Positions 498-36,356 of a stretch of DNA of 64,000 bases are shown in pieces. The translations under genes were made by a program, and so were the position numbers. Origin of the DNA: a virus; UHGV virus genome UHGV-1342921, one strand, 5' to 3'. The notes beneath the pieces were generated by a model. The model was not told the origin of the DNA and ran no database searches. It worked only from the letters and a program-made list of their open reading frames with translations. Every line of letters begins with the position of its first letter. Position 1 is the first letter of the stretch.

Positions 498-578
498 GGA
501 GCGGTGGACGGGACTCGAACCCGCACAAAAAATAACCAGTTTGGAGGACTGGCGCTCTACCAATTGAGCTACCACCGC
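498..578 (-). tRNA. tRNA-like gene with anticodon loop CCUCCAA (anticodon UCC, Gly) and an atypical ~11-nt variable region; possibly a tRNA-like module rather than a canonical tRNA
   Basis: Reverse complement GCGGTGG-TA-GCTC-AATTGGTA-GAGC-G-CCAGT-CCTCCAA-ACTGG-TTATTTTTTGT-GCGGG-TTCGAGT-CCCGT-CCACCGC-T-CC. The acceptor stem is 7 bp, the D and T arms are canonical, but position 33 is C and the variable loop is unusually long. Confidence 0.45.
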
Positions 579-584
579 ATGCCG

Positions 585-890
585 GGGTGATTTTACCCTA
601 CAACCACCAAGGAGGCCTGCCGTTTTTATATCCGGCACCCGCCTGACAGGCCAAAGGCGGAATAGCGTTTTAACATCGGTGCGCTACCACCCTGGCCTTT
701 TGTGTCCAGGCTTGCTCTCCCCTGGAGTGAGTCTTTGGTGCCCACAACCGCATGATTGTTACGTCACCATGCAAGCGCCGTCCGCAGGCCGTATGTGGTG
801 ATCAACCACGGATGTATAAGACGGATTAAGCGTTAGGGCACAAGTACCCTTCAGGAATCATACCTGACCTGCGATTTCTCGCTTCGAACC
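585..890 (-). ncRNA. Candidate structured non-coding RNA (about 300 nt with no ORF, GC-rich with multiple hairpins) lying between a tRNA-like element and the tRNA cluster
   Basis: No ORF of 60 aa or more in any frame between 411 and 895. Several strong local stems, for example GGCCTG...CAGGCC, CTGGCC...CCAGG and GTGGT-TGATC-ACCAC. Same strand and immediate context as the tRNA genes. Confidence 0.25.
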
Positions 891-894
891 TCGC

Positions 895-1161
895 TTAAAG
901 CCCCATCGCCTTGCGCGCATCCTCCCGACTTACATACCCACTGCACTTGTTCTTCTTACCAGAGCCATACAAGGCTTCTGAATATGCCGGGTCAATATCA
1001 TTGTTGCCGTTACGGATGCGATAGACGTACAGTCCTTGCAATGCGTCGGCATGCTTACGAGCCTCGGAGGCCGTCTTGTAACGACCAAGCTCTTGCCACG
1101 TCCTTGAGCCATATAAGCTCGACGGCACATACTCGACGATATACAAAGTCCACACCTCCAT
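895..1161 (-). CDS. Hypothetical small protein (88 aa)
   Basis: ORF in the six-frame track (MEVWTLYIVEYVPSSLYGSRTWQELGRYKTASEARKHADAL...) with balanced composition; lies between the tRNA-associated regions. Confidence 0.35.
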   Translation of the reverse strand: MEVWTLYIVEYVPSSLYGSRTWQELGRYKTASEARKHADALQGLYVYRIRNGNNDIDPAYSEALYGSGKKNKCSGYVSREDARKAMGL

Positions 1162-1269
1162 TCAGGCGTCTTGGTTATGATAAAAGCATGAGGCAGAGCG
1201 GGTTACCTCAAGGTACTTCTTTTAGAGAGAAGCTTGAACTCTTCGCCTTGTCCCGGGCGTGTCTTTGAC

Positions 1270-1361
1270 TGGCCGAGTAGCCCAGATTCGAACTGGGACA
1301 GCACGGATCAACATGCTGGAGGGATTAGCAATCCCCTGCGATACCATTACGCCACTACTCG
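1270..1361 (-). tRNA. tRNA-Ser(GCU), type II with long variable arm, CCA encoded
   Basis: Reverse complement CGAGTAG-TG-GCGT-AATGGTA-TCGC-A-GGGGA-TTGCTAA-TCCCT-(long variable arm)-CCCAG-TTCGAAT-CTGGG-CTACTCG-G-CCA. Anticodon GCT. A 7-bp acceptor stem and the long extra arm fit serine. Confidence 0.85.
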
Positions 1362-1364
1362 ATA

Positions 1365-1456
1365 TGGCGGTGAGCCTGGGATTCGAACCCAGGAGACGCT
1401 CATCACGTCTAGATGCTTTCGAGGCACCCGCAATCGACCAACTCTGCCAACTCACC
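1365..1456 (-). tRNA. tRNA-Ser(CGA), type II with long variable arm, CCA encoded
   Basis: Reverse complement GGTGAGT...GGTGC-CTCGAAA-GCATC-(long variable arm)-CCTGGG-TTCGAAT-CCCAGG-CTCACC-G-CCA. Anticodon CGA. The long variable arm fits serine. Confidence 0.8.
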
Positions 1457-1457
1457 G

Positions 1458-1532
1458 TGGTAGGTGTGGAGAGAATCGAACTCTCATCTGACGATTATAA
1501 GTCGTCGGCCCTGACCTTTGTGCTACACACCT
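1458..1532 (-). tRNA. tRNA with anticodon UAU (would read AUA, Ile), CCA encoded
   Basis: Reverse complement AGGTGTG-TA-GCAC-AAAGGTCA-GGGC-C-GACGA-CTTATAA-TCGTC-AGATG-AGAG-TTCGATT-CTCT-C-CACACCT-A-CCA. Perfect 7-bp acceptor stem, canonical T-loop. The D-stem has one mismatch. Confidence 0.7.
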
Positions 1533-1533
1533 A

Positions 1534-1610
1534 TGGCCTCCAAAGAAGGACTCGAACCTTCAGCCTGTCGTGTAGGAGACGACCGCTCTATCCATTTGAG
1601 CTATTTGGAG
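1534..1610 (-). tRNA. tRNA-Arg(CCU), CCA encoded
   Basis: Reverse complement CTCCAAA-TA-GCTC-AAATGGATA-GAGC-G-GTCGT-CTCCTAC-ACGAC-AGGCTG-AAGG-TTCGAGT-CCTT-CTTTGGAG-G-CCA. All four stems are canonical. Anticodon CCT. Confidence 0.85.
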
Positions 1611-1668
1611 AAGAAGGGGACAGGTCTTGTCTATGGAACGTTGCCATAGACAAAGTGTGTCTCCCTTG

Positions 1669-1741
1669 TCCAGCCAGCAGGACTCGAACCTGCAATCGCA
1701 TGCTCCCAAAGCATGAGGGTTGCCAATTACCCTATGGCTGG
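1669..1741 (-). tRNA. tRNA-Pro(GGG), CCA not encoded
   Basis: Reverse complement CCAGCCA-TA-GGGT-AATTGGCA-ACCC-TC-ATGCT-TTGGGAG-AGCAT-GCGAT-TGCAGG-TTCGAGT-CCTGC-TGGCTGG-A. Anticodon GGG. Confidence 0.75.
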
Positions 1742-4622: not shown

Positions 4623-5480
4623 CTACTGTTTAGAATCTGTTGTCAACCGTTTTGGTGCCGAGATTCTCCAGTTTTTTTCCTTCAAGGAATAAGCCACATC
4701 AAAAGTGTCTGTACATCTCTTGCATGACCCGCCCTTAAAGCATCTCATGCCACAGCGGATTCTCTCTTTCGTGAGACTGTCGATCATTGTGGTGTTTGGA
4801 AACGGGATCTTTATGTCGTAGTTTATCTCCCCAAGGTCACCATACCAGTTCTTTGTGACGAACCAAGTCTTGTATAACGCTGACAGCATCCCGAAATTGT
4901 ATCCGCCTTTAAAGTCATAGCAATCAAACTCGATTGTGTCAATCAACCCGTCTATTAGGTCAAAGTCATTCGGGCGCACGATCATCGCCCTCTTGTCGAA
5001 CCCTCTTGTCGAGCACATGCTTGGGATTCTGTTCGCAACGAATCTGACGTTGACGTTGTTGTTGTGGCATAGCTCACAAACGTCTTTAAGGGAATACCAC
5101 AGGTCATCGGACAAATATATGTCAGACACACCAAGTGAGATAAAGTAGTCAAGAGACACCATGTTGTACGCTGGTGCGTCGTAACTGAAGAAATACTTAC
5201 AGTTCATTTGCTTCAGCGTCTCGATATCCTTTATATGGTTCTCGCGGAGCCTGAAATATATGTTCTCTTTATCAAGTCTGATAATTGACTTGATAAGCTT
5301 CTTGTCATCCATATCGCCGACAATCTCGACGTTCACCCTCTTGCCGGGAAAGGCTTCGATAAAGTCGCCAAGCTTGTCTATTGTGCTTGTTTCTGGGTTG
5401 TATTGGATATTGAACTCATCAGCTGTGTCGTTGAGCTCATAAAACAGTTTAAATGGGATAGCGAGCTTCATTAAGCTCAT
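4623..5480 (-). CDS. Hypothetical protein (285 aa) with a C-terminal Cys cluster
   Basis: Long ORF; C-terminal CGMRCFKGGSCKRC motif; no family recognised by eye. Confidence 0.5.
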   Translation of the reverse strand: MSLMKLAIPFKLFYELNDTADEFNIQYNPETSTIDKLGDFIEAFPGKRVNVEIVGDMDDKKLIKSIIRLDKENIYFRLRENHIKDIETLKQMNCKYFFSYDAPAYNMVSLDYFISLGVSDIYLSDDLWYSLKDVCELCHNNNVNVRFVANRIPSMCSTRGFDKRAMIVRPNDFDLIDGLIDTIEFDCYDFKGGYNFGMLSALYKTWFVTKNWYGDLGEINYDIKIPFPNTTMIDSLTKERIRCGMRCFKGGSCKRCTDTFDVAYSLKEKNWRISAPKRLTTDSKQ

Positions 5481-6714
5481 TCACCTCCTTTGAACACTTT
5501 TCACATACGACCCTTCTTGTACCCCATCGCTCGGAATCTAACGGTTGACCGCAATGAAGGCAAGTTGGCTTACCAGACATCTGAAGGCGCAACGGTTTGG
5601 TGACCTTATATGGCTCCCTGTTTACCTCGAAGAATTTGTCGTCATCATGGAACATGAAGAAGTCGTTGCATGCACCGTAAGACCAAGGCGACACATGCCA
5701 CCCGCCGGATAAACCAGCTTCAAGCATTTTCGCTTCGAAATCCTTAAACTTCTGCGTCTCATTACGCACGTCGAAGTTCTCACATTGTTCAAGCAATAGC
5801 CTGTCCTCTTGAATCCATGGATAGTTTGTGACCTCATAACTCTCACAAGAGGTGAGTGCAGACAGCGCACCTCGTGCAAGCTCGGCAGAGAAGAACGGGT
5901 ACTGCCTTGAGCCAAGTGCCACACCGGAATCAAGGTCATAAAACAGCATCATTCGCCAGCTCTTGTTCGGCACACCAGGCAGGAACGGCACCTTTGACTC
6001 CATGTATGCCACAACAGCAGTTGGGCTGTTCATATATTCTGTCACACCTGAACGATTGTTTCCTTTGCCGACCAGGGACATACAACTTGTCCATCCGCTG
6101 TTGTTGTCGCTCATAGAGAGGAAGTCGATCGGGTGTATCGACAAGACGACATTTGCATTAAGTCTCTGTGTCGTGCGAATAAGGCTCACTCTGTCACGGA
6201 ACTGTGTGAACAAATCCATGAACGGATATCCGACAAACTCCAATGCCTTGCGAATTGCTCGCATTCGCTTGCCACGTATGAGAAGCTTTGTCTCTAAAGC
6301 TCCGTCTGACTTTGGTGAAAATAGCACGATTTCAGTGTCGCTCACTTGCTTGTCTGCCAAAATGTCATCTGCTCTGAACAAACCAATGACATTGTTTACA
6401 GTGCTATGGTCACACAAGCCGGAATATTCAAGGTTGTACATATAGTCTGCCACAGATGGAATGATGTTTAAACTTGCGTTCACGACTGACTTGCGTGCAA
6501 ATTCTGGGTCGTCTTTGAGATCTGCCGTTACATGCGTTGTCATGCGAAGTTTCTTGCCAAAAACTTCGTTGAATAAACGTGTCTTCGCATCATTCCAGGA
6601 TTTGAGTATAGACTTTGTGTCAACAGACGGATAGTCTCCAATTGCACGGTGTATATAGTTGTCGATCACATCTGCGTCATACGCCTTTAGCGCATCATAT
6701 GGCTGTATCGTCAT
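5449..6714 (-). CDS. Hypothetical protein (421 aa) with a C-terminal zinc-ribbon-like CxxC...CxxC
   Basis: Long ORF; C-terminal CLHCGQPLD...CEKCSKE motif. Confidence 0.5.
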   Translation of the reverse strand: MTIQPYDALKAYDADVIDNYIHRAIGDYPSVDTKSILKSWNDAKTRLFNEVFGKKLRMTTHVTADLKDDPEFARKSVVNASLNIIPSVADYMYNLEYSGLCDHSTVNNVIGLFRADDILADKQVSDTEIVLFSPKSDGALETKLLIRGKRMRAIRKALEFVGYPFMDLFTQFRDRVSLIRTTQRLNANVVLSIHPIDFLSMSDNNSGWTSCMSLVGKGNNRSGVTEYMNSPTAVVAYMESKVPFLPGVPNKSWRMMLFYDLDSGVALGSRQYPFFSAELARGALSALTSCESYEVTNYPWIQEDRLLLEQCENFDVRNETQKFKDFEAKMLEAGLSGGWHVSPWSYGACNDFFMFHDDDKFFEVNREPYKVTKPLRLQMSGKPTCLHCGQPLDSERWGTRRVVCEKCSKEVNELNEARYPI

Positions 6715-6717
6715 TCT

Positions 6718-6966
6718 TTACCAATCCTCTTCGACTGCAATATCAATCTCGTCATCAATCTTATTCTTCAAGTATCCAGGAAGGAGCACGTAGTTTATAT
6801 CAAACCTGTCAAGAAGATCTTCAAACTCATCCTTCGGAATACTATATCCGTAATGGAATCCGACATACCCGACAAGGTCGTCAACCTTCTCTTCAAGCTC
6901 CTCCTCGGCACATCCAAGAATCATAGGGTTGCCGACCTCGGTGACATCAATGTTAAGCATTAGCAT
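6718..6966 (-). CDS. Hypothetical small acidic protein (82 aa)
   Basis: ORF abutting the upstream gene. Confidence 0.4.
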   Translation of the reverse strand: MLMLNIDVTEVGNPMILGCAEEELEEKVDDLVGYVGFHYGYSIPKDEFEDLLDRFDINYVLLPGYLKNKIDDEIDIAVEEDW

Positions 6967-7181
6967 ACACCAGCCTTGTATCCGCGCTTTACCTTAAAAA
7001 TCCTGATATAGGAATATTCGTCGATGTACCCAGGATAGTTGTTGCACACATACCTGACCATCACCGCCTGTCCCTCATGCAGTTCAAGCTTGAAGAAAAA
7101 ATCCTTGATGAGATTGTTAGTCTTGGTCTCATACACACTGACGCAATAGTTGGCGTCGCATTCGTTATTGACATACCTCAT
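6960..7181 (-). CDS. Hypothetical small protein (73 aa)
   Basis: ORF overlapping the start of the downstream gene by 7 nt. Confidence 0.4.
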   Translation of the reverse strand: MRYVNNECDANYCVSVYETKTNNLIKDFFFKLELHEGQAVMVRYVCNNYPGYIDEYSYIRIFKVKRGYKAGVC

Positions 7182-7243
7182 GGGACTCTCCTATCGTCTT
7201 GATTACATTATTATTATAACACAATCAAAAACCTTCTGTCAAT

Positions 7244-7275
7244 ACAAAAAAAGCCCCTTAAAGGGGCTTTTTTAT
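7244..7275. terminator. Bidirectional rho-independent terminator (AAAAAAAGCCCCTTTAAGGGGCTTTTTTA) downstream of the Ro60-like gene
   Basis: Perfect GC-rich 9-bp stem flanked by an A-run and a T-run. Confidence 0.8.
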
Positions 7276-7278
7276 TTG

Positions 7279-8709
7279 TTAAGCGAGAAGGGGATTCCAG
7301 TTCCTCATATCGTTGATCTCATTGTACAGCGCGTCTTCGCCTTCCTCGAACTTCCTCACAAGAGCGAAGAGGTTTGTTGTAAGACAGGTCATCAGACACA
7401 CGTTGCTCGGCATATCCTTAAACACGGTCGTCGGATATGCACCGAGGTCAAACGAGTATGAATACTTGCTTATGCTGTTCACAAACTGCACCGGGCTCGA
7501 CATGTCAAAGTTGCGTATTTCCATGTTCTGTTGGTCACTGAATAAAAACATTCTGTCAAACTTCTTATTGCCAATAACTTTGCGGATCTCGCCGATGCAA
7601 GTCGAATAACCACATGTGTGCATCGCAATGTCTTCGATGGCATCAAACGGGTTATAGTTATCAAGAATATTTCTATCAACCAAGCTTGCTGTGGACCCAA
7701 ACTTGACAATAGTGGGATCAGTGCACTTCTGGGAGACGATGTAGGCATAGCATGCGCTTGCCTCTCCAATAGACACCGTCGAACGAAGGGATAATCCTGC
7801 GTCCATCGACCCAGACACGTCTACTGCTACAAGAGTCGATCCTTCAATCACGGGGACGTTCTCCATCGACGCCTTGAACGCCTCTGACAGTTCGTACCAG
7901 TACTTGGGACATGCCTTATATGCAGTGTAGATCTGGAACGGGAACACAAGAGACTCCTTGATCTTATTTGGGTCACATAGAATCGAGAAGATGTACTTTT
8001 CTGCAAACTCCTGGGTGCAGAAATCATACTTGCTGATGTTCCTCAAGTTTCGAAGAAGGGCAAGATATCCAAGTTTGCCTTCTACAAGGAGCCTCTTCCA
8101 CTCTTCCTCTGCGTTGTCGGTGTTGCTGATTGCCGTCTCCCACACATCGGCTACAGGAATCTTGCCGGTCCTCTTGATGGTATCCACAACAGCACTGTTG
8201 GCGTGAGAGATGTTGATAATGTCAAACCAATTGTACCTCTTGCCGGTCAGCTTGTACTTGCCGAACATGTATTCGTTCATGTCGCTGACGTAGTCACAGG
8301 TTGCCTTCACAACGGCATGGCTCCTCTTCTCATAAAGGTAGTCGATTGCACCAAACAGCTCTGCGACGTCGTCAGGCCTATGGAACAGCTTCCTGTACAG
8401 GTCGCGCTTGTCCTGAAAATTATATGCGTTTAGGACTGCTCCGGCAAGGTGAGATGCAGACCTCATACCCATGACGTTCCTTGCATACACAACAGCCTTC
8501 ATGGCAAACTCTGCACCATACTTGTCCGCGATTTGGCGGGTCTTCTCAATGAGTCGTTCAGCCTGCGTCCTGTCGGACTCATAAGCGCCACCGGCAAGGA
8601 ACGAACCAAACAGGATGTTCAGCCACTCGTGCAACAAAGGCTTTTCATATGCCTCTCCACCCTCATATGTCACTGTGGTGATACCTTGCTTGTTGTTAAA
8701 CTTTGACAT
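7279..8709 (-). CDS. rsr: Ro60/Rsr-like ribonucleoprotein (TROVE domain plus a C-terminal vWA domain with a DxSGS MIDAS motif)
   Basis: N-terminal TTVTYEGGEAYEKPLL...LFGSFLAGGAYESD...MKAVVYARNVMGMRSASHLAGAVL matches the TROVE pattern. C-terminal LVAVDVSGSMDAGLS is the vWA MIDAS motif characteristic of Ro60 orthologues. The length of 476 aa is typical of bacterial Rsr. Confidence 0.65.
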   Translation of the reverse strand: MSKFNNKQGITTVTYEGGEAYEKPLLHEWLNILFGSFLAGGAYESDRTQAERLIEKTRQIADKYGAEFAMKAVVYARNVMGMRSASHLAGAVLNAYNFQDKRDLYRKLFHRPDDVAELFGAIDYLYEKRSHAVVKATCDYVSDMNEYMFGKYKLTGKRYNWFDIINISHANSAVVDTIKRTGKIPVADVWETAISNTDNAEEEWKRLLVEGKLGYLALLRNLRNISKYDFCTQEFAEKYIFSILCDPNKIKESLVFPFQIYTAYKACPKYWYELSEAFKASMENVPVIEGSTLVAVDVSGSMDAGLSLRSTVSIGEASACYAYIVSQKCTDPTIVKFGSTASLVDRNILDNYNPFDAIEDIAMHTCGYSTCIGEIRKVIGNKKFDRMFLFSDQQNMEIRNFDMSSPVQFVNSISKYSYSFDLGAYPTTVFKDMPSNVCLMTCLTTNLFALVRKFEEGEDALYNEINDMRNWNPLLA

Positions 8710-8983
8710 TCCATCATCCTTTCATGTAGGAGAAACAAAAACCCCGACAACCAGAGAAATATTTTTGTCCGGAGATGTTATTATAGTCATATTAAAATAT
8801 GGAAGTATCCGAACAAACCATCATCTAGCCATCGGGGCAGTCATAAAGTATAGAGAGGAAATACCCGTGTCAGGAGCGTTATAATTTTTTCATGAAATTG
8901 AAGTATCCCAACACACAATCACTCTCTAATTACTTTGTATGAGTATACTATACCCAATTTATATTCTGTTGTCAAGTATTATT

Positions 8984-9709
8984 TTAAAAATCTTCGTAAT
9001 AATTTGAGTAATCTATGATCTTTAGTTTGCCGTCCTTGTCATATCCCCAATTACCCGAGTGAAGGTCATAGATGTCGTTGTCATCTAGAAACTCTCTTAA
9101 TGCGAACAAGCGCCCTATTTGATATTGCTTTTTGAGCTCCTGGGTGATTGTGTTCGGCACTCCGAATTTAAAAAACATGTTCTCACCATCTGGAATCTCG
9201 CCGTTATACTCAACATCACTGAACGGCACACATCGCTCTGACGCGTACACTGGAATCGTGTCGTACAGCGTGCCTATATATTCGGTTGGCGCAAAGAACG
9301 AGCTTACCCCATCCTCTTCTGCCTTCTTGTAGTTGTCGACCTCCAACTCACAATAGTCGCCACCGTTGCGTCTCATCTCATCCATCTCTTCGAAGCTCAT
9401 CCTGCAGACAAACTCTTTGTTTTCACCACTCTCGTCGTACTCATAGAGATCCACTCCGAAGAATGGCACTTTCACCACTTTATCCTTCACGTCCTTTAGG
9501 AAAAACACAACTTTTGTGATTCCAGCGCGCACATATTGAACGACAGAGTTGTCCCCTCCATCCTTATACTCTTGCATCCAAAGGGAATCAAACGAGTCTC
9601 CCTCTTCCGCTATCTTTTGTGCGTATAGGCCTTCGTCGATGAACAGCTCGTGGTCTGATGTGTCTAGAAAATCTTTCAACTCTTGTAGGATTCGCTGGTT
9701 TGTATCCAT
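8984..9709 (-). CDS. Hypothetical protein (241 aa)
   Basis: ORF between the rsr-like gene and the RNA ligase gene on the same strand. Confidence 0.5.
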   Translation of the reverse strand: MDTNQRILQELKDFLDTSDHELFIDEGLYAQKIAEEGDSFDSLWMQEYKDGGDNSVVQYVRAGITKVVFFLKDVKDKVVKVPFFGVDLYEYDESGENKEFVCRMSFEEMDEMRRNGGDYCELEVDNYKKAEEDGVSSFFAPTEYIGTLYDTIPVYASERCVPFSDVEYNGEIPDGENMFFKFGVPNTITQELKKQYQIGRLFALREFLDDNDIYDLHSGNWGYDKDGKLKIIDYSNYYEDF

Positions 9710-9898
9710 ATCTCTGTTGTCTCAACCCCTTCTTCTCGCAGGTTGGTATCGAACGAACGACTTCGTGAGGATATTATAGCATATTTTTTTCAAAAAGTCA
9801 AGCAAATCTCGGTGTAAAAAGTTCGACCGGCAAGAAAAAACCCGCCCACAACAGCGTGATATACTGCTATGGACGGGTTCCCCTTGGGAGGTCGTTTT

Positions 9899-10843
9899 TT
9901 ACAAGCCGATGGTGGATCGCACCTTGTCGCACGTGAACTTCTTGACAGCCTTTAGGACGATCGGGTACTTGCCGTACTTCTTGGCAATGACGTTGAACTC
10001 CTCCGAGAGAAGGTCGGAGAAAGCCATTTCCATCACCATGCCGACCATCTTGCCGTTGTTCTTGGAAAACTCTTGTCCAAGAACGTCAGACACCTTGTTG
10101 ATGCACTTTTGGATATCAGAAGAAGACACCAGGTCGTCAACAATAGCTTGCTCTATATTAGAACCTTCTGGGATGTCTTTTGTCGACTTTTGACCCTTAT
10201 TCTCCTTAAATTCGTCCCGTACAATCTTGCCTTCCTCATAGTTGCCGAAACGGGAAATGTAGTTGTAGTTCTTCACAACTACACCTTCGCCCACGACGTC
10301 AAGCGGGAGGTTGAAGTGGTTGGACTCTGCAAGCTTTGCAATGTCGTCAATAGTTACGTTCTCGTCGCTATCGTACACGTGCAACGGCGGGATAATATAC
10401 TGATAGCCATACTCCACAAGAGCCTTCGCATAAATGTCATAAGGTAGATAGCCGAAGTGCTTCTCGGTCTCACTGTTGCCGATCGTCGCGAGCTTCATGT
10501 CAAACACATAAAACTCCTTGTTGAGATAAGACTTAATGTGTCCAGCCTTGCCGCCGAGCCACTCACCACAAACCACCATGAACGGATGGCTCACACAGAA
10601 CCGACGAATCGGGTCCATATTCTCGGATTCCGTTACATGCTTGTAAAATCCAGCGTTATCCTTTTCGAGAGACAGCTCGCGGTTGCGGGATCCAGCATGG
10701 ATTACGCCTTTGTCGTCAGCCCAAACGGTTGCGTTTGTGCCGTCCAACTTCGGGAAGACGTACTTACGTCCCCTGGTTGTAAGAATATCAGGGACTTCGT
10801 TGAGTCGAACGACATGGAGGAACTTGATGTTTCCATAATTCAT
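9899..10843 (-). CDS. ATP-dependent RNA ligase, Rnl2 family (T4 Rnl2-like nucleotidyltransferase)
   Basis: Motif I KLDGTN (compare T4 Rnl2 KIHGTN). Motif III VCGEWLG (FGEFAG). Motif IV EFYVFDM (DFYVFDI). Motif V EGVVVKNY (EGYVLK). All are in the correct order and spacing. Confidence 0.8.
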   Translation of the reverse strand: MNYGNIKFLHVVRLNEVPDILTTRGRKYVFPKLDGTNATVWADDKGVIHAGSRNRELSLEKDNAGFYKHVTESENMDPIRRFCVSHPFMVVCGEWLGGKAGHIKSYLNKEFYVFDMKLATIGNSETEKHFGYLPYDIYAKALVEYGYQYIIPPLHVYDSDENVTIDDIAKLAESNHFNLPLDVVGEGVVVKNYNYISRFGNYEEGKIVRDEFKENKGQKSTKDIPEGSNIEQAIVDDLVSSSDIQKCINKVSDVLGQEFSKNNGKMVGMVMEMAFSDLLSEEFNVIAKKYGKYPIVLKAVKKFTCDKVRSTIGL

Positions 10844-10868
10844 TGAGATATCCTTTACTACTGTGCCT

Positions 10869-11213
10869 TTACTTGTCGAGAACTTCCGCTTCTGCTTTCA
10901 TCTTTGCAATCTGGTCGTATGCCATATCCTTGGTGACGGCGAACCAACCTGGCTTGTCGTCCCATCCGTAGTCAAGAGCCACACCGAAGAACTGATAGGC
11001 GAACTTCACGATGCCGGTGATCTCCTTGCGAGTGTACATGTTCATCTCTTGGCCGAGATACTCGCAAAGGGTGTTTGCGATGGACAGCTGGTCGTCTGTA
11101 TACGATTCAGGATAGGCAATCTCAATGTCGATGCCTTCAGTTGGCTGTGGGGCCTCGTCAACGACAGGCTCGTTATCTACCACGACGTCATTGTTATTCT
11201 CAACATCGCTCAT
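10869..11213 (-). CDS. Hypothetical acidic protein (about 114 aa; start trimmed to MSDVENNN...)
   Basis: GGAGA Shine-Dalgarno 4 nt upstream of the internal ATG. Confidence 0.45.
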   Translation of the reverse strand: MSDVENNNDVVVDNEPVVDEAPQPTEGIDIEIAYPESYTDDQLSIANTLCEYLGQEMNMYTRKEITGIVKFAYQFFGVALDYGWDDKPGWFAVTKDMAYDQIAKMKAEAEVLDK

Positions 11214-11311
11214 TATGTCTCCAATCAATCTGTTTTGTTTTGTTACTTATATTATCCCACAATTTAAATCTATTTGCAACAAAAAATTTTTAACCGACAC
11301 CAAAAAGGATG

Positions 11312-11554
11312 TCATTCGTCTTCTTGCTGTATGATAATTCCTTTCTTCAGAAACTTATTGTGCTCATGTATTTTAATGACCGCCTCGTAATACTCACTAA
11401 AAGCAACATACATATTTTTCAACAGGTTGTGCATATTACTTACTTTACCAGCATCAAGATTATCATAGCCGTTTAATGCATTATAAAGTTCAGACAATGC
11501 AAACTCGGTATCGGCATACTTATCACAAATGAACTCGTAAGTTTGCTTGTCCAT
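11312..11554 (-). CDS. Hypothetical small protein (80 aa)
   Basis: ORF MDKQTYEFICDKYADTEF... Confidence 0.4.
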   Translation of the reverse strand: MDKQTYEFICDKYADTEFALSELYNALNGYDNLDAGKVSNMHNLLKNMYVAFSEYYEAVIKIHEHNKFLKKGIIIQQEDE

Positions 11555-11580
11555 GATAATTCCTTTCGTTAAAACTTTAT

Positions 11581-11805
11581 TTAATCCGTGAACGATTCAA
11601 GCGTAGGACAACGCCTCAAATCGCAAGAGTCTGATATGCAACAGTAGGTAATCTCGCCAGAGTCCATGACATAATCATCAGCCGTCAAAATAATAGCTTC
11701 ATTGGCAACAGCCTCAAGGACCTTCTCTTTTGCTTCTTTTTCACTGTTGGCATCGACAATGATGGTTTTACAAAGCAGCTCGGTATAATCAACAGTGTAC
11801 TTCAT
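11581..11805 (-). CDS. Hypothetical small protein (about 74 aa; start at MKYTVDYTELL...)
   Basis: GGAAGGAAG Shine-Dalgarno 5 nt upstream of the internal ATG. Confidence 0.4.
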   Translation of the reverse strand: MKYTVDYTELLCKTIIVDANSEKEAKEKVLEAVANEAIILTADDYVMDSGEITYCCISDSCDLRRCPTLESFTD

Positions 11806-11984
11806 TGTTGCTTCCTTCCGTTTAAGAAGCGTGATTGTGTCAACATGACATTTAATATTATGCAACAATTCATACCAACTTGCAATAATGAATTTTTAAT
11901 CAATAGGATTTGCGAGTTTTACACAAACTGGTGGGTATATAAAGTAAAAGAAAATATATTATAAATATATATATAGTAGTAGTA

Positions 11985-12145
11985 GGTCATGTTGAAAAGT
12001 TGAAAACCAGGTAAAACGCCAGGTGAGAATTAAAAAAATTTTCAACATCAGTTTGTTGAGAAATCAACATTGGTTTTGATACGTTAACATAAACTGGTGG
12101 GTCAAAAGTTTTCAACAGAGTTTTCAACAAAGCTTTGTTGAAAAG
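11985..12145. promoter_or_regulatory. Array of at least seven copies of the 9-mer TTTTCAACA/TGTTGAAAA in direct and inverted arrangement; candidate operator or iteron cluster in the divergent intergenic region
   Basis: Copies at 11989-11997, 11998-12006 (partial), 12038-12046, 12053-12068 (TGTTGAgaaaTCAACA palindrome), 12108-12116, 12120-12128 and 12135-12143. The last two form the perfect 24-bp palindrome TTTTCAACAAAGCTTTGTTGAAAA. Flanked by the 12-bp direct repeat AAACTGGTGGGT at 11924 and 12100. Confidence 0.6.
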
Positions 12146-12151
12146 TTAATA

Positions 12152-12180
12152 CTTGACAATAGGTCGATATATGGGTATAG
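12152..12180 (+). promoter_or_regulatory. Sigma-70-like promoter TTGACA-17 bp-TATAGT that starts the rightward gene block
   Basis: TTGACA at 12152-12157 and TATAGT at 12175-12180 with 17-bp spacing. Sits immediately downstream of the repeat array. Confidence 0.6.
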
Positions 12181-12224
12181 TGTATTCACGCAAAACAAAT
12201 AAAAATGACGGTGATTGGAGAGCG

Positions 12225-12431
12225 ATGGTTTGTCCAAGCAAGACTTTCAAGATCGACGAGTTCGTAATCACCAGGTACTACAATAACAACAAGGACGTCT
12301 TCGGCGGCAAAGACTACGTAGATGTGATCGAAGAACCGTTCTATATGACAGATTTGAGCAAGCTCGACAAGAAAGACCGCAGGGTTGTCGAAGACTTTAT
12401 GGAAAAGCAACCCAAGAAGTACATCGGATAG
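12225..12431 (+). CDS. Hypothetical small protein (start moved to the ATG of MVCPSKTF...; the ORF-track TTG start overlaps the promoter)
   Basis: GGAGAG lies just upstream of the ATG at 12225. The track start at 12153 is the -35 hexamer itself. Confidence 0.4.
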   Translation: MVCPSKTFKIDEFVITRYYNNNKDVFGGKDYVDVIEEPFYMTDLSKLDKKDRRVVEDFMEKQPKKYIG

Positions 12432-12444
12432 GAGACAGTTTAAA

Positions 12445-12762
12445 GTGGAAACATACGAGAACAGCTTCTTTAGGCCCAAGCCGAACGACAAGAAGAAGTG
12501 TTGCCATGAACTCGACGAGCCATGTAAGCTGAATGCGTTTATCTGCACCAAGACTTGGTGGGAGACGAACATAAAGAAGTACATTCAAATGGCAGAAACC
12601 GAGTACAAGAACAAGATCGAGATAGATATCGACGAGTTTGACGACAAGCATACGGTTGACGTCAGGGTGGACGGAAAGTACGTAGCGACAGCCAAGTCGA
12701 AGGAAGAGCTTGCTGTAATACTGAAGTCTATCTACTCAATGCTCACAACTATGGCAGACTAA
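12445..12762 (+). CDS. Hypothetical protein (GTG start, VETYENSFFRPK...)
   Basis: AGGAGA Shine-Dalgarno 8 nt upstream of the GTG at 12445. Confidence 0.45.
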   Translation: METYENSFFRPKPNDKKKCCHELDEPCKLNAFICTKTWWETNIKKYIQMAETEYKNKIEIDIDEFDDKHTVDVRVDGKYVATAKSKEELAVILKSIYSMLTTMAD

Positions 12763-14308: not shown

Positions 14309-15025
14309 ATGGTGTACGTCATCGCAGACATCCACGGAAGCGCGCTGTCGCTTCAACAGGACATGAAGTATATGCCGGAGCTGACAGAAGACGACTATAT
14401 AATCATAGCTGGAGACGCTGGACTGGAATATGGGCAGTATTCTATGGGGTCGCTAAAGAAGTATATGAAGAAGCTCCCATGTACTTTTGTGGTCATGCGC
14501 GGAAACCATGACAACAGGTATCATTATATGGCACGCAACAATCCTGACAGATGGTCTTTCACAGATGACGAAATGTATGCGTATGAAAACAAATATCCAA
14601 ATATCCTGTACGTCAAAGACAGCGGTGGAGTCTACACAATAGACGGCAAGGACATACTGTTTATCCCTGGAGCGTATTCTGTAGATAAATATTATAGACT
14701 CGCAAACGGGCTTGCATACGAGCCTCATGAGGAATTGAGTTGGTTTGAAGCTGACGGATTGTTTATTGAAATCGACAATAAGCACTTTGATTATGTCATT
14801 TCTCATACTGCACCACTGTCTCTTGTGCCGAGACTAGAGCATTTATTTTTGGCCCAGGTAGACCAGGGATGCGTGTCTCATTGGACAGAGAAGATTTGTG
14901 ACGAAGTTTATACGAACTACAGCTTTAAACATTGGTACTTTGGACACTTTCACAGCGACATGGAATTAAGCGACAACGTAACGATGGTATATGCCAAATT
15001 TGGGGTGATAGGAAGCGATGAGTAA
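14309..15025 (+). CDS. Calcineurin-like metallophosphoesterase (Ser/Thr phosphatase or phosphodiesterase family)
   Basis: Motifs DIHG (ADIHGS), GDxxD (AGDAGLEYG), GNHD (MRGNHDN) and GHFH (FGHFHS) in canonical order. Confidence 0.8.
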   Translation: MVYVIADIHGSALSLQQDMKYMPELTEDDYIIIAGDAGLEYGQYSMGSLKKYMKKLPCTFVVMRGNHDNRYHYMARNNPDRWSFTDDEMYAYENKYPNILYVKDSGGVYTIDGKDILFIPGAYSVDKYYRLANGLAYEPHEELSWFEADGLFIEIDNKHFDYVISHTAPLSLVPRLEHLFLAQVDQGCVSHWTEKICDEVYTNYSFKHWYFGHFHSDMELSDNVTMVYAKFGVIGSDE

Positions 15026-25154: not shown

Positions 25155-26228
25155 ATTCCTTATCCTTTTACCAGAGGGGTAAACGCTTCGTATAAAGTGT
25201 TTGCTAACGGGGAAGACTAAACGATAGTTATAAAAACTTCTTTTGAGAAGAACTATCGCATGTTAATCCCGTGTGATACCGCTTCTTCTCTCTTCAAGAG
25301 AGGAGATTGATTATTTTGCCTGGCAACTCTAAAATTTGTGGAATCTACAGAATCAAGAATGAATTAAACGGAAAGGTTTATATTGGGCAAAGTAAGAGAA
25401 TCTTTGGCCGATGGAACGAACATCTCCGTTCTTCTTTTCCTGAAAAATGGGCTGTAGAGACAAAGCGTGACCAAGATTTACCGCTTCATCGTTCAATAAG
25501 GAAATATGGAATAGAGAATTTTTCTTTTACTATCCTGGAAATATGTTCTCCAGAAGAGCTTAATGACAAGGAAAAAGAGTATATCAAGAAATATGAGTCA
25601 GACTTGCGTGACAAAGGATACAACCTTGCTAGTGGCGGACAAGACTCTTTTGCGTTAGCTGGTGAGCGCCATAGCCAAGCAAAACTCACACAACATCAAG
25701 TTGATGAAATAATTGATATGCTGTCTCAAGGTATTCCATTGGAAGAAATTAGCCAGAAATTTAAAGTCTCAAAGCCAGCAGTTTGCAATATAAACACAGG
25801 AAAGAATTGGCATTCTGATGATCGTCAGTATCCAATTCATAAATATGAGCCTCTTAAAGGAGAGCGAGCAGGTCAAGCTAGGCTGACAGACGAACAAGTA
25901 ATGGCTATTCGGAACGATTTTGCAGACGGAGATTTAACTCTTCAGCAAATAGCAGATAAACATGGAATCCAGTACGGAAATACAGTTTCTATCTGCTACG
26001 GATATTCTTGGACTCACCTGCCGGTGTTTAAAAAAGGGCAAAATAAAAAGCGGGGCCATGTATCGACTATCTCCGAGGCTGAAATGCGGGAGAGTAGGGC
26101 TACTAGTGGTAAGTAGCGAGGTTTTAGGAAACGAATCCTCTGAAAACCGAAATAGGATTCTATAGTATTTTACTATAGTAAGATATAGTCAGTGCTCTAG
26201 GGAAACCTAGAGACCCACGAGCTGGAAG
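25155..26228 (+). mobile_element. Group I intron (about 1.07 kb) interrupting the dnaB-like helicase gene; encodes a GIY-YIG homing endonuclease
   Basis: Exon 1 ends in U with an in-frame stop at the intron start. Conserved group I S element AAGATATAGTCAGTGC at 26180-26195, followed by a P9-type GAAA hairpin (CTCTAGGgaaaCCTAGAG). Omega-G at 26228. The joined exons restore the DnaB H4 motif (QLNGRLSTAN-TDPIPDQNLLRGSKSI versus DnaB QLNRSLEQRADKRPVNSDLRESGSI). Confidence 0.7.
25307..26116 (+). CDS. GIY-YIG homing endonuclease (I-TevI-like) encoded within the dnaB intron, with C-terminal NUMOD/HTH-like DNA-binding repeats
   Basis: ICGIYRIKNELNGKVYIGQS (GIY...YIG), R-x(3)-H, KYGIENF, N at the catalytic position. 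Repeated AKLTQHQVDEI and ARLTDEQVMAI helix-turn-helix-like modules. The start is ambiguous (TTG at 25307 or 25316). Confidence 0.75.
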   Translation: MIILPGNSKICGIYRIKNELNGKVYIGQSKRIFGRWNEHLRSSFPEKWAVETKRDQDLPLHRSIRKYGIENFSFTILEICSPEELNDKEKEYIKKYESDLRDKGYNLASGGQDSFALAGERHSQAKLTQHQVDEIIDMLSQGIPLEEISQKFKVSKPAVCNINTGKNWHSDDRQYPIHKYEPLKGERAGQARLTDEQVMAIRNDFADGDLTLQQIADKHGIQYGNTVSICYGYSWTHLPVFKKGQNKKRGHVSTISEAEMRESRATSGK

Positions 26229-31317: not shown

Positions 31318-32262
31318 ATGGCAACTTTTAAAGAATTAGAGAAAATTTATTTTGACATGTACGGTAAACAGCTTGCTCGCCCTGCTTTACATCGGTGGGT
31401 AAAAAAAGGAGAAGTAAAAGCTGTTAAAATAAAACCTGACGAAATAAATTACGATAAACAGAGTTTTATAAACAAAATTACTAGCCAGTCGTACAAAAAC
31501 AAGGCTTTTAGACAAAACCCAGAAGACTACATTGGGAAGACTTGCGGATATTTGTTAATCCAGGGAGTAGTACCGCCAGAAGAAAGAAGAGACAAGGATT
31601 ACCATGGAACGATTATGAGATGCAAGTGTCTTGCTTGCGGAAAAGAAGATGTTCAAACTCGTTTTAGTTACGTGACAGGGCAAGGAAACTATTGCCAGAA
31701 AAGTTGTGGATGCGAACAGAAAATCCAACATTTTCTTACAACAACCAAAAGGATACCAGAACCTAAAAAGCCAAAAAACAAAAAAACACCAAAGAAAAAC
31801 GATTTTGTTGATAGATACAGATTTGATTTTGACAGATTTTTGTTTGTTCATAAAATGCTTATCAATAATGATGTTAAGCGTTATTTTCAAAAATGCGACC
31901 AAGGAGAATACGAAAACGCTGTAGATCATTTTTTTTACGACGAACAATTTCTTGCAGTGTATGATTTTTGGAAAGAAAAAACAAACAACGGAGAAAAAAC
32001 AAATACTTTTTATGATTGGTCAAAGCCTAGTTTAGATCATATTCTCCCTAAATCGAGAGGCGGAAGTTGTGACATTTCAAATTTACAAGTCCTAACGGTC
32101 TTTGAAAATCTCGCTAAAAGAGATATGACATGGGAAGAATGGCAAGACTTTAAACAAACAACTCATACACAATCTGATTATTTTATAGAAAACATCTTAA
32201 AAAGATATAGAGAAAAACAAAACAATGGCGAGAAAGAGGGAGGGAAGGATGACGACAACTAA
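31318..32262 (+). CDS. Free-standing HNH homing endonuclease with N-terminal zinc-ribbon repeats, in an AT-rich insert directly upstream of dnaE
   Basis: SLDHILPKSRGGSCDISNLQVLTVFENLAKRD is a classic HNH motif (DH...GG...N...N). KTCGYLLIQG...CKCLACGKEDVQTRFSYVTGQGNYCQKSCGC resembles the zinc-ribbon modules of the 15075 ORF. Very low GC compared with flanking genes. Its 3' end overlaps the dnaE start. Confidence 0.7.
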   Translation: MATFKELEKIYFDMYGKQLARPALHRWVKKGEVKAVKIKPDEINYDKQSFINKITSQSYKNKAFRQNPEDYIGKTCGYLLIQGVVPPEERRDKDYHGTIMRCKCLACGKEDVQTRFSYVTGQGNYCQKSCGCEQKIQHFLTTTKRIPEPKKPKNKKTPKKNDFVDRYRFDFDRFLFVHKMLINNDVKRYFQKCDQGEYENAVDHFFYDEQFLAVYDFWKEKTNNGEKTNTFYDWSKPSLDHILPKSRGGSCDISNLQVLTVFENLAKRDMTWEEWQDFKQTTHTQSDYFIENILKRYREKQNNGEKEGGKDDDN

Positions 32263-34749: not shown

Positions 34750-35036
34750 AGAGGAGCCTTTTACCGGTGACGGTAATAGCAAAGCTACTTAACTGCGGGA
34801 ACTTCTTTAGAGCCTATAACTACCAACCGTGCGTGGCGACATACATGGGGCAGAGGGTAACGCCCGAGATATGGTAACAAGGTTATAGGATTAGAAAATC
34901 CGCAACGCCACCTCTGGCTGTTAGACAGAGGAACGCCCAGAGACTACCACGTAGCCTTCTCTACAAGAGAAGATGGTATAGTCCAGACCGCAACACATAA
35001 GTGGCTGGGGAGACCCAGTGCGGTATTGCTCAAACG
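34750..35036 (+). mobile_element. ORF-less group I intron (about 290 nt) in dnaE; the boundaries are approximate
   Basis: The Pol III alpha alignment breaks between ...GYSFN and (F)HGYSYSIIGYQCAWLATHYP (canonical [27 protein letters not shown]). In-frame stops lie on both sides. The intervening sequence has a P-like AACTGCGGGAAC, a Q-like AAATCCGCAACG and an S-like AGATGGTATAGTCC element. Omega-G at 35036. Confidence 0.55.
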
Positions 35037-36346
35037 TTCACGGATATAGCTACTCAATCATCGGCTACCAGTGCGCATGGCTTGCAACACACTACCCGAA
35101 GGTGTTTTGGAACACTGCATGCCTTCGAGTGGACTCGGGCGTTGAAGACGATGCAACGACAAGTTATGACAAGATTTCAAAGGCGGTCGGCAACATTCTC
35201 AACGCAGGCATCAAAGTGTTGCCGATTGACATCAACAAGTCGGGGTACATGTTTGAGCCAGACGAGAAGACACAGTCGATTCTTTGCGGTCTTAAAGCGT
35301 TGATCGGCATCAATGGCGACACTGTTCAGCAAATCATCGAAAACAGGCCTTACAGTTCGTTCGATGACTTCCGAGAGAAGGTGCCGCTGAACAAGACGGC
35401 GATGATTTCACTCATCAAGGCTCACGCATTTGACTGCTTTGACGTCAGATACAACGTCATGGTTCAGTACATCACCGAGCAGAGCGAGCCCAAGTCCAAG
35501 CTGACGATGGCTAACCTGCAAGGTCTTATTGACAGGAGCATGATTCCGGCAGACTATCAGTTGCAGATCAGGACGTTCGTTTTCAACAAGTCCTTGCGTG
35601 CCAACTGCAAATTCAAGGAATGGTACACCCTTGAGGGCAGATACTATCGTTTCTATGAGAAGTTCTTCGACATAGACGAGCTTGAGAGCGTCGGCGGCAA
35701 GTTCTGCATCTCACAAAAGAAGTGGCAGAAGATGTATACAAAGATGATGGAGCCTGTGAAGAAGTACATCACCGACAACCAAAAGGCCCTGCTTGAACAG
35801 TTCAACCTCACGTTGTTCAACGAGCAATGGAACAAGTACGCATCGGGCACTCGCGGTTCGTGGGACATGAGTTCCCTGGGCTTCTATTCCGCCAAGCACG
35901 AGCTGGACGGCATAGAGTACGACAAGTACGGCCTGTCGAAGTTCTCAAGCCTGCCCGAGGAGCCTGTAGAAGCCGAGTCGCGTGGCAAGTTCAAGATTTA
36001 CAATCTCACGAGGATCTGCGGCACGGTTGTGGCGAAAGACGACACTCGTTCGACCTTCACTCTCCTCACCCCGGATTCAGGCTCCGTCGACGTCAAGCTT
36101 CCCAGGGAGATTTACGCCCACTACAACAGGAAGATCGTGCTGGAGAACTCTGGCTCGAAGATTTCCGAGGACGGGTGGTTCACAAGGGGCACGCTTCTCA
36201 TGGCATGCGGTTATCGGCAGGGAAACATGTTCAGGCTAAAGAGGTACAAGAACACGTCAAGCTTGCTGTTGTATAACATGGCGATAACCAAGAGTGGTAG
36301 GATAATCTGCACCGGAAGCCGCCTCGGTGACGAAGACGAGGTATAA
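35037..36346 (+). CDS. dnaE: DNA polymerase III alpha subunit, exon 2 (C-terminal HhH/OB region)
   Basis: HGYSYSIIGYQCAWLATHYPKVFW...AGIKVLPIDINKSGYMFEP...LCGLKALIGINGDTVQQIIENRPYSSFDDFREKV...LIKAHAFDCF matches the DnaE C-terminal region. Confidence 0.7.
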
Positions 36347-36356
36347 GTTACATTGT

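Follow-up and report, generated by a model that had tools for sequence, protein, structure and literature searches.

A Ro60-family protein, two predicted Y-RNA-like genes and an Rnl2-like RNA ligase lie side by side in a phage genome

Positions 7247-10843 on the minus strand of the virus genome stretch UHGV-1342921 are, in the reading that we favour, likely to constitute an RNA-maintenance island made of two separable units lying side by side. The first unit consists of a Ro60-family protein preceded by two predicted Y-RNA-like (Yrl) genes, and the second of an Rnl2-like ATP-dependent RNA ligase accompanied by a protein of predicted kinase fold. The stretch analyzed here (the window) comprises 64 kb of a ~140-kb genome, and an initial annotation had proposed a Ro-centred RNA quality-control and repair module in it. 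Phage Ro60 proteins, phage Y-like RNAs and Ro-linked RNA repair are all already published, and the locus is a variant of this known gene set. What is added here are a pair of unannotated Yrl genes, a consensus and a model that can be used for their RNA family, and a kinase-fold family associated with RNA repair.

Results

Organization of the locus

The open reading frames (ORFs) of the Ro protein (7279-8709) and of the ligase (9899-10843) are both on the minus strand, in a run of minus-strand genes. Between the ligase and Ro there are one ORF (8984-9709, hereafter ORF241) and a 274-nt spacer, giving the gene order ligase, kinase-like ORF241, two Yrl genes, Ro. Two ~140-kb IMG/VR contigs (L001 and L002) possess the identical gene order, with a Ro protein 92-95% identical to that of the window and spacers ~90% identical.

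A distant phage branch of the Ro60 family

The ORF at 7279-8709 encodes a Ro60-family protein of 476 aa, in which a TROVE/HEAT region is joined to a vWA domain carrying a MIDAS (metal ion-dependent adhesion site) of the form DxSxS...T...D. This agrees with the initial annotation, which had described a TROVE-like region and a C-terminal vWA domain with the motif DVSGSM. The Pfam TROVE profile (PF05731) matched with an E-value of 3.6e-15 and 56.5 bits (cut-off 23), the direct match spanning residues 181-278 only, and phrog_850 ('RNA-binding protein') matched the ORF at 9e-30. When the profile check proposed for the two domains was run, TROVE was thus recovered and vWA_Ro60 (PF25045) matched more weakly, giving 20.8 bits for the window protein, under its cut-off of 27.7; several relatives carry a precomputed match to this profile. 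The MIDAS itself is complete: DVSGSM corresponds to residues 297-302, and D297, S299, S301, T370 and D392 are invariant in an alignment of the window Ro with 33 relatives. The profile of the relatives aligned over the full length of phiRo60, a Thermus phage protein of solved structure (9KOP/9L5Y; residues 11-472, E 1e-44), and also matched the eukaryotic proteins, Xenopus Ro60 (2.7e-15, residues 204-422) and human RO60 (7.8e-15), as well as D. radiodurans Rsr (1.9e-7). As judged from these comparisons, 7279-8709 is a true Ro60-family protein, and the profile alignment suggests that it adopts the ring (HEAT-repeat) fold. The NCBIfam model of the bacterial Rsr equivalog (NF041674) reached 19.9 bits against a curated cut-off of 900. 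For this reason the window Ro is best placed, at the sequence level, as a distant phage branch of the Ro60 family and not as an Rsr orthologue.

Two predicted Y-RNA-like genes upstream of Ro

We read the 274-nt spacer as encoding two tandem ~90-nt Y-RNA-like genes, predicted to lack a tRNA-like domain: Yrl-1 (8845-8936, minus strand) and Yrl-2 (8742-8837, minus strand). The initial annotation had alluded to Y RNAs and had missed these genes, which occupy 8742-8936 immediately upstream of Ro and on its strand, as is the case for Y-type RNAs. Each module opens with the 5' side of its closing stem, which the 5' and 3' ends form together. A loop strand of 6 nt (UGAUUG in one module, UGAUGG in the other), the 5' side of the 10-bp helix, UACUUC and an apical loop with a mini-hairpin come next, and the 3' half consists of the helix return strand, an 8-nt loop strand ending in UAUUUC and the return strand of the closing stem. 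Yrl-1 is supported by its fold, by compensatory changes in L001 and by a match to R1, a covariance model described below. Its closing stem leads to the internal loop UGAUUG // GGUAUUUC, the 10-bp helix, UACUUC and the apical loop, and the gene starts ~4 nt past the predicted transcription start. Yrl-2, supported by its R1 match, its fold and the terminator scan, has a 15-bp closing stem (CCCCGAUGGCUAGA.../...UCUGGUUGUCGGGG) and the internal loop UGAUGG // AAUAUUUC, inward of which are found the 10-bp helix, UACUUC and an apical mini-hairpin. In the terminator scan, the Yrl-2 closing stem followed by UUUUUG, at about 8742-8756, was also scored as a terminator-like element, 32 nt ahead of the Ro ATG.

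The spacer folded better than all of 200 shuffled sequences (z -3.5). Folded alone, the two modules reached -24.1 kcal/mol (z -3.1) for Yrl-1 and -36.4 kcal/mol (z -5.4) for Yrl-2, with folds of 93 and 98 nt, respectively. Two A-U to C-G compensatory changes were observed in Yrl-1 of L001, and Yrl-2 is conserved with compatible changes in L001 and L002. The modules have the size and shape of Y RNAs (80-130 nt, a long end-closing stem and a large internal loop), and both helices are supported by covariation across 54-62 sequences. Searched over the 64 kb, R1 recovered only two sites, 8850-8930 (38.5 bits, E 1.2e-7) and 8748-8832 (32.8 bits, E 4.6e-6), the next-best match having an E-value of 0.77. 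The 5' strand of the internal loop reads GUGAUUG and AUGAUGG in the window; many related loci have GUGACGA, GUAGCGA or GUGGCGA there. Rfam at gathering score found only tRNAs in the whole window, in which T-arm motifs occurred only in the true tRNAs at 498-1741. Given the covariation, the R1 matches, the sequence signature and the published Y-like RNAs adjacent to Ro, we take the modules to be probable short Y-RNA-like genes.

The Yrl family in related phages

A scan with the Ro alignment retrieved 80 viral loci, most of which show the same module upstream of Ro, with between one and five tandem copies per locus. The apical part of these related modules often contains inserted tRNA-like arms, a T arm (GGUUCGAAUCC) and a D arm (UAGCUCA..GGUAGAGC); such tRNA-like forms are present in L053, L063, L017 and L072. 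R1 was built from 62 distinct loop-trimmed modules in a 63-nt register of 63 columns, with the outermost pair of the 10-bp helices dropped. Loop-trimming was adopted since plain MAFFT alignment of whole modules left their 3' halves out of register. The 62 trimmed modules were 88% paired, compared with 51% for shuffled modules and 42-49% when the register was slid. The inner pairs of the closing stem, which was unused in module selection, were more than 90% paired, with many double changes and all four Watson-Crick types, and the pairing percentage of helix h2 is partly circular because h2 was used to pick the seed modules. In a motif-only test, perfect complements were found in 43 of 173 cases, compared with 4.7% for shuffled helices. 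When 54 unmodified sequences were aligned by R1, 94.6% of positions were paired (44-53% with the register slid) and 341 double-sided changes were counted.

In 863 kb of related loci, R1 gave 64 matches at E<=0.01, every one on the strand of Ro and nearly all no more than 2 kb upstream of it. It also matched upstream of Ro in phages that were not part of the seed, namely the crAss-like cr111_1 (1.6e-6), Bacillus phage G (6.4e-6) and the 635-kb LR745206 (1e-4). Rfam at gathering score returned no Yrl match in 13 related loci. Upstream of Ro in Gordonia phage Neville and in CcrColossus, we observed by eye that T and D arms are surrounded by the same signature, GAUGCGAAG or GGUGGCGUAG ... (G)UUACUUC ... 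GUUCCC, which in general form reads GNGNNGA ... UACUUC ... UUCC.

Several arrangements of the modules were recorded in passing. Tandem arrays of three to five modules, in which short and tRNA-like forms are mixed, precede Ro in L040, L041, L051, L063, L072 and L073, and L017 has one Yrl module downstream of Ro as well. In a sub-clade (L011-L014 and close kin), Ro follows the kinase-like gene after only ~80 nt, and a Yrl module was not detected within 5 kb. In Neville (L084, 4910-5723), five tiny coding sequences annotated as 'hypothetical protein' (gp86-gp90, 105-200 nt each) overlie a region with Yrl and tRNA-like signatures, and are therefore probably mis-annotated noncoding RNA genes.

An Rnl2-like RNA ligase

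The ORF at 9899-10843 (minus strand) encodes a putative Rnl2-like ATP-dependent RNA ligase of 314 aa, with motifs I, Ia, III, IIIa, IV and V and an all-helical C-terminal domain. The nucleotidyltransferase motifs quoted in the initial annotation were all found, KLDGTN (K32), GEWLG (E94), FYVFDM (F114, D115) and EGVVVK (E186, K191), and the KLDGTN lysine, on which that annotation had made its case depend, is among the residues invariant in 32 relatives (K32, R53, R55, E94, F114, D115, E186, G187, K191 and K206). In motif V, K206 is invariant within (G/A)KIVRDE and the second basic position is apparently R209, in an approximate register to K225 and K227 of T4. The proposed profile check gave a divided answer. 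Pfam RNA_ligase (PF09414) matched at 6.7e-14 with 52.8 bits (cut-off 27), and the Rnl2 equivalog TIGR02307, which aligned residues 89-303 up to model position 312 of 326, stayed at 35.7 bits against a cut-off of 197. It is for this shortfall that we write 'Rnl2-like' and not 'Rnl2'.

The ORF also matched phrog_548 (5.6e-31), and relatives in phages of Bacillus, Clostridium and Cellulophaga bear the annotation 'RNA ligase'. In a profile search of PDB sequences, the best matches were the Naegleria ligase NgrRnl (1.8e-11; nucleotidyltransferase domain only) and T4 Rnl2 (8.6e-9, residues 26-300). The AlphaFold (AF2) model, with a predicted local distance difference test (pLDDT) score of 87, comprises an N-terminal nucleotidyltransferase domain and a helical C-terminal domain (helices 230-312). 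Full-length T4 Rnl2 structures were its top Foldseek matches, and DNA ligases came far down the list. By sequence and model, the ligase is thus Rnl2-like in architecture and belongs to a separate subfamily (phrog_548).

A predicted kinase-fold protein between the ligase and Ro

The initial annotation had passed over the ORF between the ligase and Ro, which appears to be a better-supported partner of the ligase. ORF241 (8984-9709, minus strand) is predicted to be a minimal protein of the protein-kinase fold. It has no match in Pfam, NCBIfam or PDB sequences, and tblastn against phage records returned none either; in addition, Pfam matched none of 32 diverse members of its family. The protein contains the pattern DLHSGN...IIDYS, and its AlphaFold model (pLDDT 75) retrieved by Foldseek the minimal kinases OspG and NleH (7.9e-4), followed solely by other kinases. 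K80, E123, D215, N220 and D233 are invariant in the 32 members. From the pattern and the model, these residues would be the beta3 lysine, the alphaC glutamate, the D-x4-N of the catalytic loop and the metal-binding aspartate, and the predicted model is a bilobal kinase fold.

With 2,523 clusters at 50% identity (E<=1e-3), the family is a large one, of proteins of ~210-265 aa. Beyond the neighbourhood of Ro, members were found in L092, L096, L104, L106, L117, L120, L121, L124 and L125. Among 73 ORFs neighbouring the family gene in eight loci without Ro, we counted AAA_33 of the polynucleotide kinase type (five), PhoH (three), Metallophos (three), PF09414 ligase with an OB domain (two), HD (two), RtcB (one) and an Rnl1-type ligase (one). 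Genes of the RNA-repair type directly adjoin the family member in L092, L106, L121 and L124. It is conceivable, though unlikely, that the ORF241 family represents a large undescribed group of phage RNA-repair factors, the window protein being either a missing 5'-OH RNA kinase of a non-P-loop type or a regulator of the Ro ribonucleoprotein, of the ligase or of host RNases.

Promoters and terminators

A sigma-70-type promoter (TTGACA, 17 nt, TATAGT; 11 of 12 consensus positions) lies at 8947-8975 on the minus strand and is conserved in L001 and L002. It is predicted to drive Yrl-1, Yrl-2 and, via read-through, Ro. Between the Yrl-2 U-run and the Ro ATG there are only 32 nt and no promoter-like site, so that translation of Ro would depend on transcripts extending through the Yrl-2 stem; Yrl RNA would then be expected to outnumber Ro mRNA. 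Downstream, a GC-rich hairpin with a 12-pair stem flanked by A and T runs (7247-7273, terminator scan), resembling a bidirectional intrinsic terminator, sits 6 nt past the Ro stop codon and closes the Yrl-Ro transcription unit; several Rfam models of terminator-type small RNAs align there, all sub-threshold. The other unit has its own signals. ORF241 is preceded by a second sigma-70-type promoter at 9773-9801 on the minus strand (TTGACT, 17 nt, TATAAT, with TG; 11 of 12 matches). After the ligase, we read from the sequence a terminator-like element at 9831-9877 on the minus strand (CCCGUCC ... GGGCGGG followed by UUUUUU), which the terminator scan missed owing to its loop of more than 8 nt and which is hence weak.

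As a separate observation, a 12/12 sigma-70 promoter (7213-7242, minus strand; TTGACA, 18 nt, TGnTATAAT) lies directly past the Ro terminator and drives small ORFs downstream, and strong host-type promoters are used throughout the early region.

Candidates for RNA end-healing

The initial annotation had suggested that a tRNA cluster, a metallophosphoesterase and a P-loop kinase elsewhere in the window might supply end-healing. The metallophosphoesterase gene is real: the ORF at 14309-15025 (plus strand) encodes a calcineurin-type protein of 238 aa (PF00149, 1e-15; phrog_1649), 3.5 kb from the ligase across a divergent junction. Some support for the role comes from its homologues in other phages, which co-occur with the ligase or the kinase-like gene (L038, L042, L121 and L124); the neighbour is the ligase in L038 and in L042, and in L121 it is the kinase-like gene. 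We tentatively regard it as a 3'-end-healing partner. The tRNA cluster was confirmed by the tRNA scan as six genes at 498-1741 (minus strand; Gly-UCC, Ser-GCU, Ser-CGA, Ile-UAU, Arg-CCU and Pro-UGG, both tRNA-Ser being long-armed). It lies on the Ro strand 5.5 kb downstream of Ro, and serves as context only. The P-loop kinase (36327-37022, plus strand) was rejected as an end-healer, since it is a guanylate-kinase homologue (PF00625, TIGR03263) among nucleotide-metabolism genes, between those of DNA polymerase III (Pol III) and NrdD, and not a polynucleotide kinase.

Phage, host and other window content

The phage, of ~140 kb, probably infects gut Firmicutes. The nearest Pol III alpha sequences belong to ~140-kb Enterococcus phages, to the gut 'Phage Phass-1' and to SPbeta (37% identity). 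A profile scan of genome contigs returned three metagenome-assembled genome (MAG) contigs that encode close relatives of Ro and had been assigned to Bacilli, Bacillales and Clostridium bins, and no cellular Rsr locus. As both the polymerase kin and the MAG bins point the same way, the host is probably an anaerobic Firmicute of the gut. A megablast search with the locus in 50,697 phage records gave zero matches, and this set thus holds no close sequenced relative.

Besides an endolysin and tail genes, the window encodes gyrase/topo IV-type subunits, ThyX, DnaB, primase, a DHH protein, a Dam-type methylase, dUTPase, FolD, RuvC and the NrdD activase. Its replication block appears heavily invaded by mobile endonucleases. 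Anaerobic NrdD is cut into N- and C-terminal ORFs by a GIY-YIG/NUMOD1 homing-endonuclease-like ORF (37088-38404, 38487-39353 and 39457-40422, plus strand), and may be an intron-containing or a split gene; no group I intron was found there at Rfam gathering score. Pol III alpha is likewise carried in two plus-strand ORFs separated by 267 nt, 32508-34751 (PHP, core and fingers) and 35018-36346 (HHH_6), and may represent a remnant intron or a split polymerase; in the Enterococcus phage relatives this gene is interrupted by an HNH endonuclease. Two further plus-strand ORFs are homing-endonuclease-like, a GIY-YIG protein with helix-turn-helix motifs between DnaB and primase (25307-26116) and a protein with a weak HNH_5 match (31318-32262). 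Downstream of Ro, orf421 (5449-6714, minus strand; phrog_18912, with a zinc-ribbon-like CxxC pair at its C-terminus) and orf285 (4623-5480, minus strand; C-terminus rich in Cys) are kept in many members of the clade with Ro proteins ~40% identical to that of the window. Neither has a significant Pfam match, nor an NCBIfam or PDB sequence match.

Discussion

Proposed functioning of the two units

In the first unit, the near-consensus sigma-70 promoter would start a transcript holding the two tandem ~90-nt Y-RNA-like RNAs. The Yrl-2 basal stem with its U-run would act as a leaky terminator 32 nt before the Ro start codon, leaving the Yrl RNAs in excess and Ro to be translated from read-through transcripts. 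By analogy with D. radiodurans Rsr, Y RNA and PNPase and with phiRo60/Yrl, the Ro-Yrl particle may bind misfolded or broken RNAs and engage a host 3'-5' exoribonuclease. In the second unit, the ligase would seal 3'-OH/5'-phosphate nicks in structured RNA, possible substrates being cleaved tRNA anticodon loops. The ligase is accompanied by the kinase-fold ORF241, whose family recurs beside RNA ligases, PNK-like kinases and phosphoesterases in other phages, and the nearby metallophosphoesterase may heal the 3' end. An Rnl2-like ligase in the stead of RtcB implies a different end chemistry, for which a phosphoesterase and a 5'-kinase would be needed. Since no P-loop polynucleotide kinase was detected, the ligase and Yrl-Ro flank ORF241 and a metallophosphoesterase is near, ORF241 could be the 5'-OH RNA kinase that is missing from a heal-and-seal pathway of three proteins; the P-loop kinases beside its relatives elsewhere make a simple replacement of polynucleotide kinase by ORF241 less likely. 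The two units may cooperate.

Alternative explanations

Inherited gene order is a serious rival to such cooperation. Ro-Yrl and the ligase/kinase pair could be independent accessory modules that merely share an early-gene region, their order being conserved in one lineage, which we rate as a possible but rather unlikely account. Profile hidden Markov model scans of 50 loci of the ~40%-identity Ro clade found an ORF241 homologue upstream of Ro on the same strand in 44 and the ligase in 38; these 50 syntenic loci belong to related phages, and the conserved order may for that reason have been inherited and not selected. Several further observations weigh on the same side, against a functional island. 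The ligase, the kinase-like gene and Yrl-Ro each stand under a promoter of their own, the two units under separate consensus promoters, with the terminator-like element after the ligase. In the sister clade, whose Ro is ~30% identical, neither the ligase nor an ORF241 homologue was found within 5-6 kb of Ro in any of 28 loci, nor in any of six reference phages (ligase absent within 5 kb in all of them). The Ro neighbours in 16 loci (15 of this clade and LR745206) are DNA-metabolism genes. In contig 149955 the ligase and ORF241 homologue are together, ~19 kb from Yrl-Ro (L096 and L040, respectively), and Bacillus phage G holds both gene families ~300 kb apart. Among the 58 window ORFs scanned, there was also no polynucleotide 5'-kinase of known type, which leaves a complete heal-and-seal pathway as a candidate only. 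From the clade counts and the separation in contig 149955, we conclude that Ro-Yrl is the universal unit and that the ligase and kinase-like protein form a second one, the two being juxtaposed in one lineage. On the other side, within this lineage adjacency persists as Ro diverges to ~40% and the ligase to ~30% identity while the intervening genes turn over. In Salmonella, moreover, there is genetic linkage between Ro and an RNA ligase (RtcB), the two are classed together as RNA repair in jumbo phages, and in Gordonia phage Neville an RNA ligase gene lies ~5 kb upstream of Ro, accompanied by tRNAs. The module of the initial annotation thus fits published systems, whereas the link between Ro and the ligase that it drew is confined to one lineage. 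That the ligase takes the position of RtcB in an operon was overstated, the adjacency being limited to that lineage and broken in at least one relative, and the promoters being separate.

Two narrower alternatives bear on single components. The spacer could act solely in cis, as a leader or attenuator of the Ro mRNA that perhaps serves Ro autoregulation, and not be a source of stable trans-acting Y-like RNAs. The terminator-like stem and U-run in which Yrl-2 ends 32 nt before the Ro ATG, leaving no room for a separate Ro promoter, would suit this. Other points tell against a Y-RNA assignment more generally: the internal-loop motif of the window (GAUUG, GAUGG) departs from the CGAA motif that defines YrlA and the phiLo Yrl RNAs, neither window module has T-arm or D-arm motifs, and Rfam 15 at E<=10 over 6500-12500 returned only tRNAs and sub-threshold matches to terminator-type small RNAs, leaving the spacer unmatched. 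In addition, R1 gives no score to the high-GC phages phiLo, Neville and CcrColossus, and the tie to their published Y RNAs consequently comes from reading the sequences. We nevertheless consider a pure leader very improbable, as the module occurs in 1-5 tandem copies at variable distance, up to ~2 kb upstream of Ro and once downstream of it (L017), and many copies bear tRNA-like T/D arms as published YrlA RNAs do. Y RNAs published from phages and bacteria likewise have Ro as a same-strand neighbour, with co-transcription of the two in Salmonella, and the roles of leader and Y-like RNA are mutually compatible. The ligase, for its part, could serve DNA metabolism by sealing DNA nicks or RNA-primed Okazaki junctions and not RNA repair. 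The search of the window's replication genes revealed no DNA ligase, and homologues are annotated 'DNA ligase' (Cellulophaga phage phi19:3) and 'ATP-dependent DNA ligase'. Against this, the best sequence and fold matches are RNA ligases (T4 Rnl2, NgrRnl and Rnl3-type), with DNA ligases ranking far lower, the C-terminal domain is of the helical Rnl2 type with no OB domain, and the gene, a neighbour of Ro, Yrl and the kinase-like ORF, lies outside the replication block. The window covers just 64 kb of ~140 kb, and host LigA is available. A role in DNA metabolism is, on this evidence, very improbable.

Significance

Ro60 proteins and Y RNAs are poorly understood beyond a few model organisms, and the role of the phage copies has been studied only lately (phiLo, 2025). 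Under the reading of an RNA-maintenance island, the locus is a natural variant of Ro-linked repair in which an ATP-dependent Rnl2-like ligase stands beside Ro, not RtcB, with end-healing enzymes implied. From the alignment comes a consensus of short Y-like RNAs that covariation supports, in which the closing stem is followed by a UGAYGR loop, a helix of 9-10 bp, UACUUC, an apical part that varies, the helix return, an NNUUUYCY loop and the stem return, and R1 recovers their tandem arrays beside Ro in many uncultured phages, crAss-like and huge ones included. ORF241 is a candidate for a new repair-associated kinase-fold family. The Yrl consensus, the ligase variant and the ORF241 family may all bear on how phages counter host defences that cleave tRNA.

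Comparison with known systems

Heal-and-seal systems include T4 Pnkp and Rnl1, which act against PrrC, and bacterial Pnkp/Hen1, which possesses kinase, metallophosphoesterase and ligase domains. The window resembles them in bringing together a ligase, a phosphoesterase and a kinase-type protein, with reversal of tRNA cleavage by host nucleases as a likely function. It differs in that its three predicted activities belong to separate proteins on two strands, that the kinase candidate has a protein-kinase fold and not a P-loop, and that Hen1 methyltransferase is missing. ORF241 itself resembles the minimal kinases of bacterial effectors (OspG, NleH and HopBF1) in predicted fold, size and the constellation of Lys, Glu, Asp-x4-Asn and Asp. 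Unlike them, it is phage-encoded, sits in an RNA-repair gene context and has no detectable sequence similarity to them. The ligase shares with T4 Rnl2 (2HVQ/2HVR, 1S68), its top structural match, the two-domain architecture, the motif I lysine nucleophile and motifs III, IIIa and IV, whereas the two are only ~15-16% identical and the nucleotidyltransferase domain scores slightly better against NgrRnl.

The closest described arrangement is the Salmonella rsr-yrlBA-rtcBA operon, an RNA repair operon with Ro, Y RNAs and RtcB (Chen 2014, PMC4201824; Hughes 2020, PMC7790460). Both group Ro, Y-like RNAs and an RNA ligase on a single strand. The ligases differ, that of the window being ATP-dependent, Rnl2-like and expected to join 3'-OH and 5'-P ends, whereas RtcB is GTP-dependent and joins 3'-P or cyclic-P to 5'-OH ends. 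The window also lacks RtcA and RtcR, has the order ligase, kinase-like gene, two Yrl genes, Ro, and uses separate sigma-70 promoters. TROVE proteins and RNA ligases have also been published together as RNA repair in jumbo phages. As with bacterial YrlA and YrlB, the Y-like RNAs lie within a few kb of Ro, and the tRNA-like-bearing RNAs of related phage loci share their signature. In contrast to YrlA, whose Ro-binding motif is GNCGAAN0-1G, both window RNAs are of a short form without the tRNA-like domain.

Among phages, Y-RNA-like RNAs next to Ro have been published for mycobacteriophages, CcrColossus and phage G (Chen 2014, PMC4201824). The nearest counterpart of the first unit is phiLo, in which two Yrl genes with the motif CGAA lie upstream of Ro and their RNAs bind phiRo60 and host PNPase (NAR 2025, PMC12135203; 9KOP, 9L5Y). 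The two phages share a Ro60 homologue of ~480-500 aa that aligns over its full length and two Y-RNA-like genes (Yrl1 and Yrl2 in phiLo) directly upstream of Ro on the same strand, each with a closing stem and an internal loop. They are distinguished by an identity of ~23-25% between their Ro proteins, by the window RNAs being without the CGAA motif and R1 scoring nothing in the phiLo region, by the annotation near phiLo Ro, which includes no RNA ligase or ORF241-type gene, and by their hosts, Thermus for phiLo and, probably, a gut Firmicute for the phage described here.

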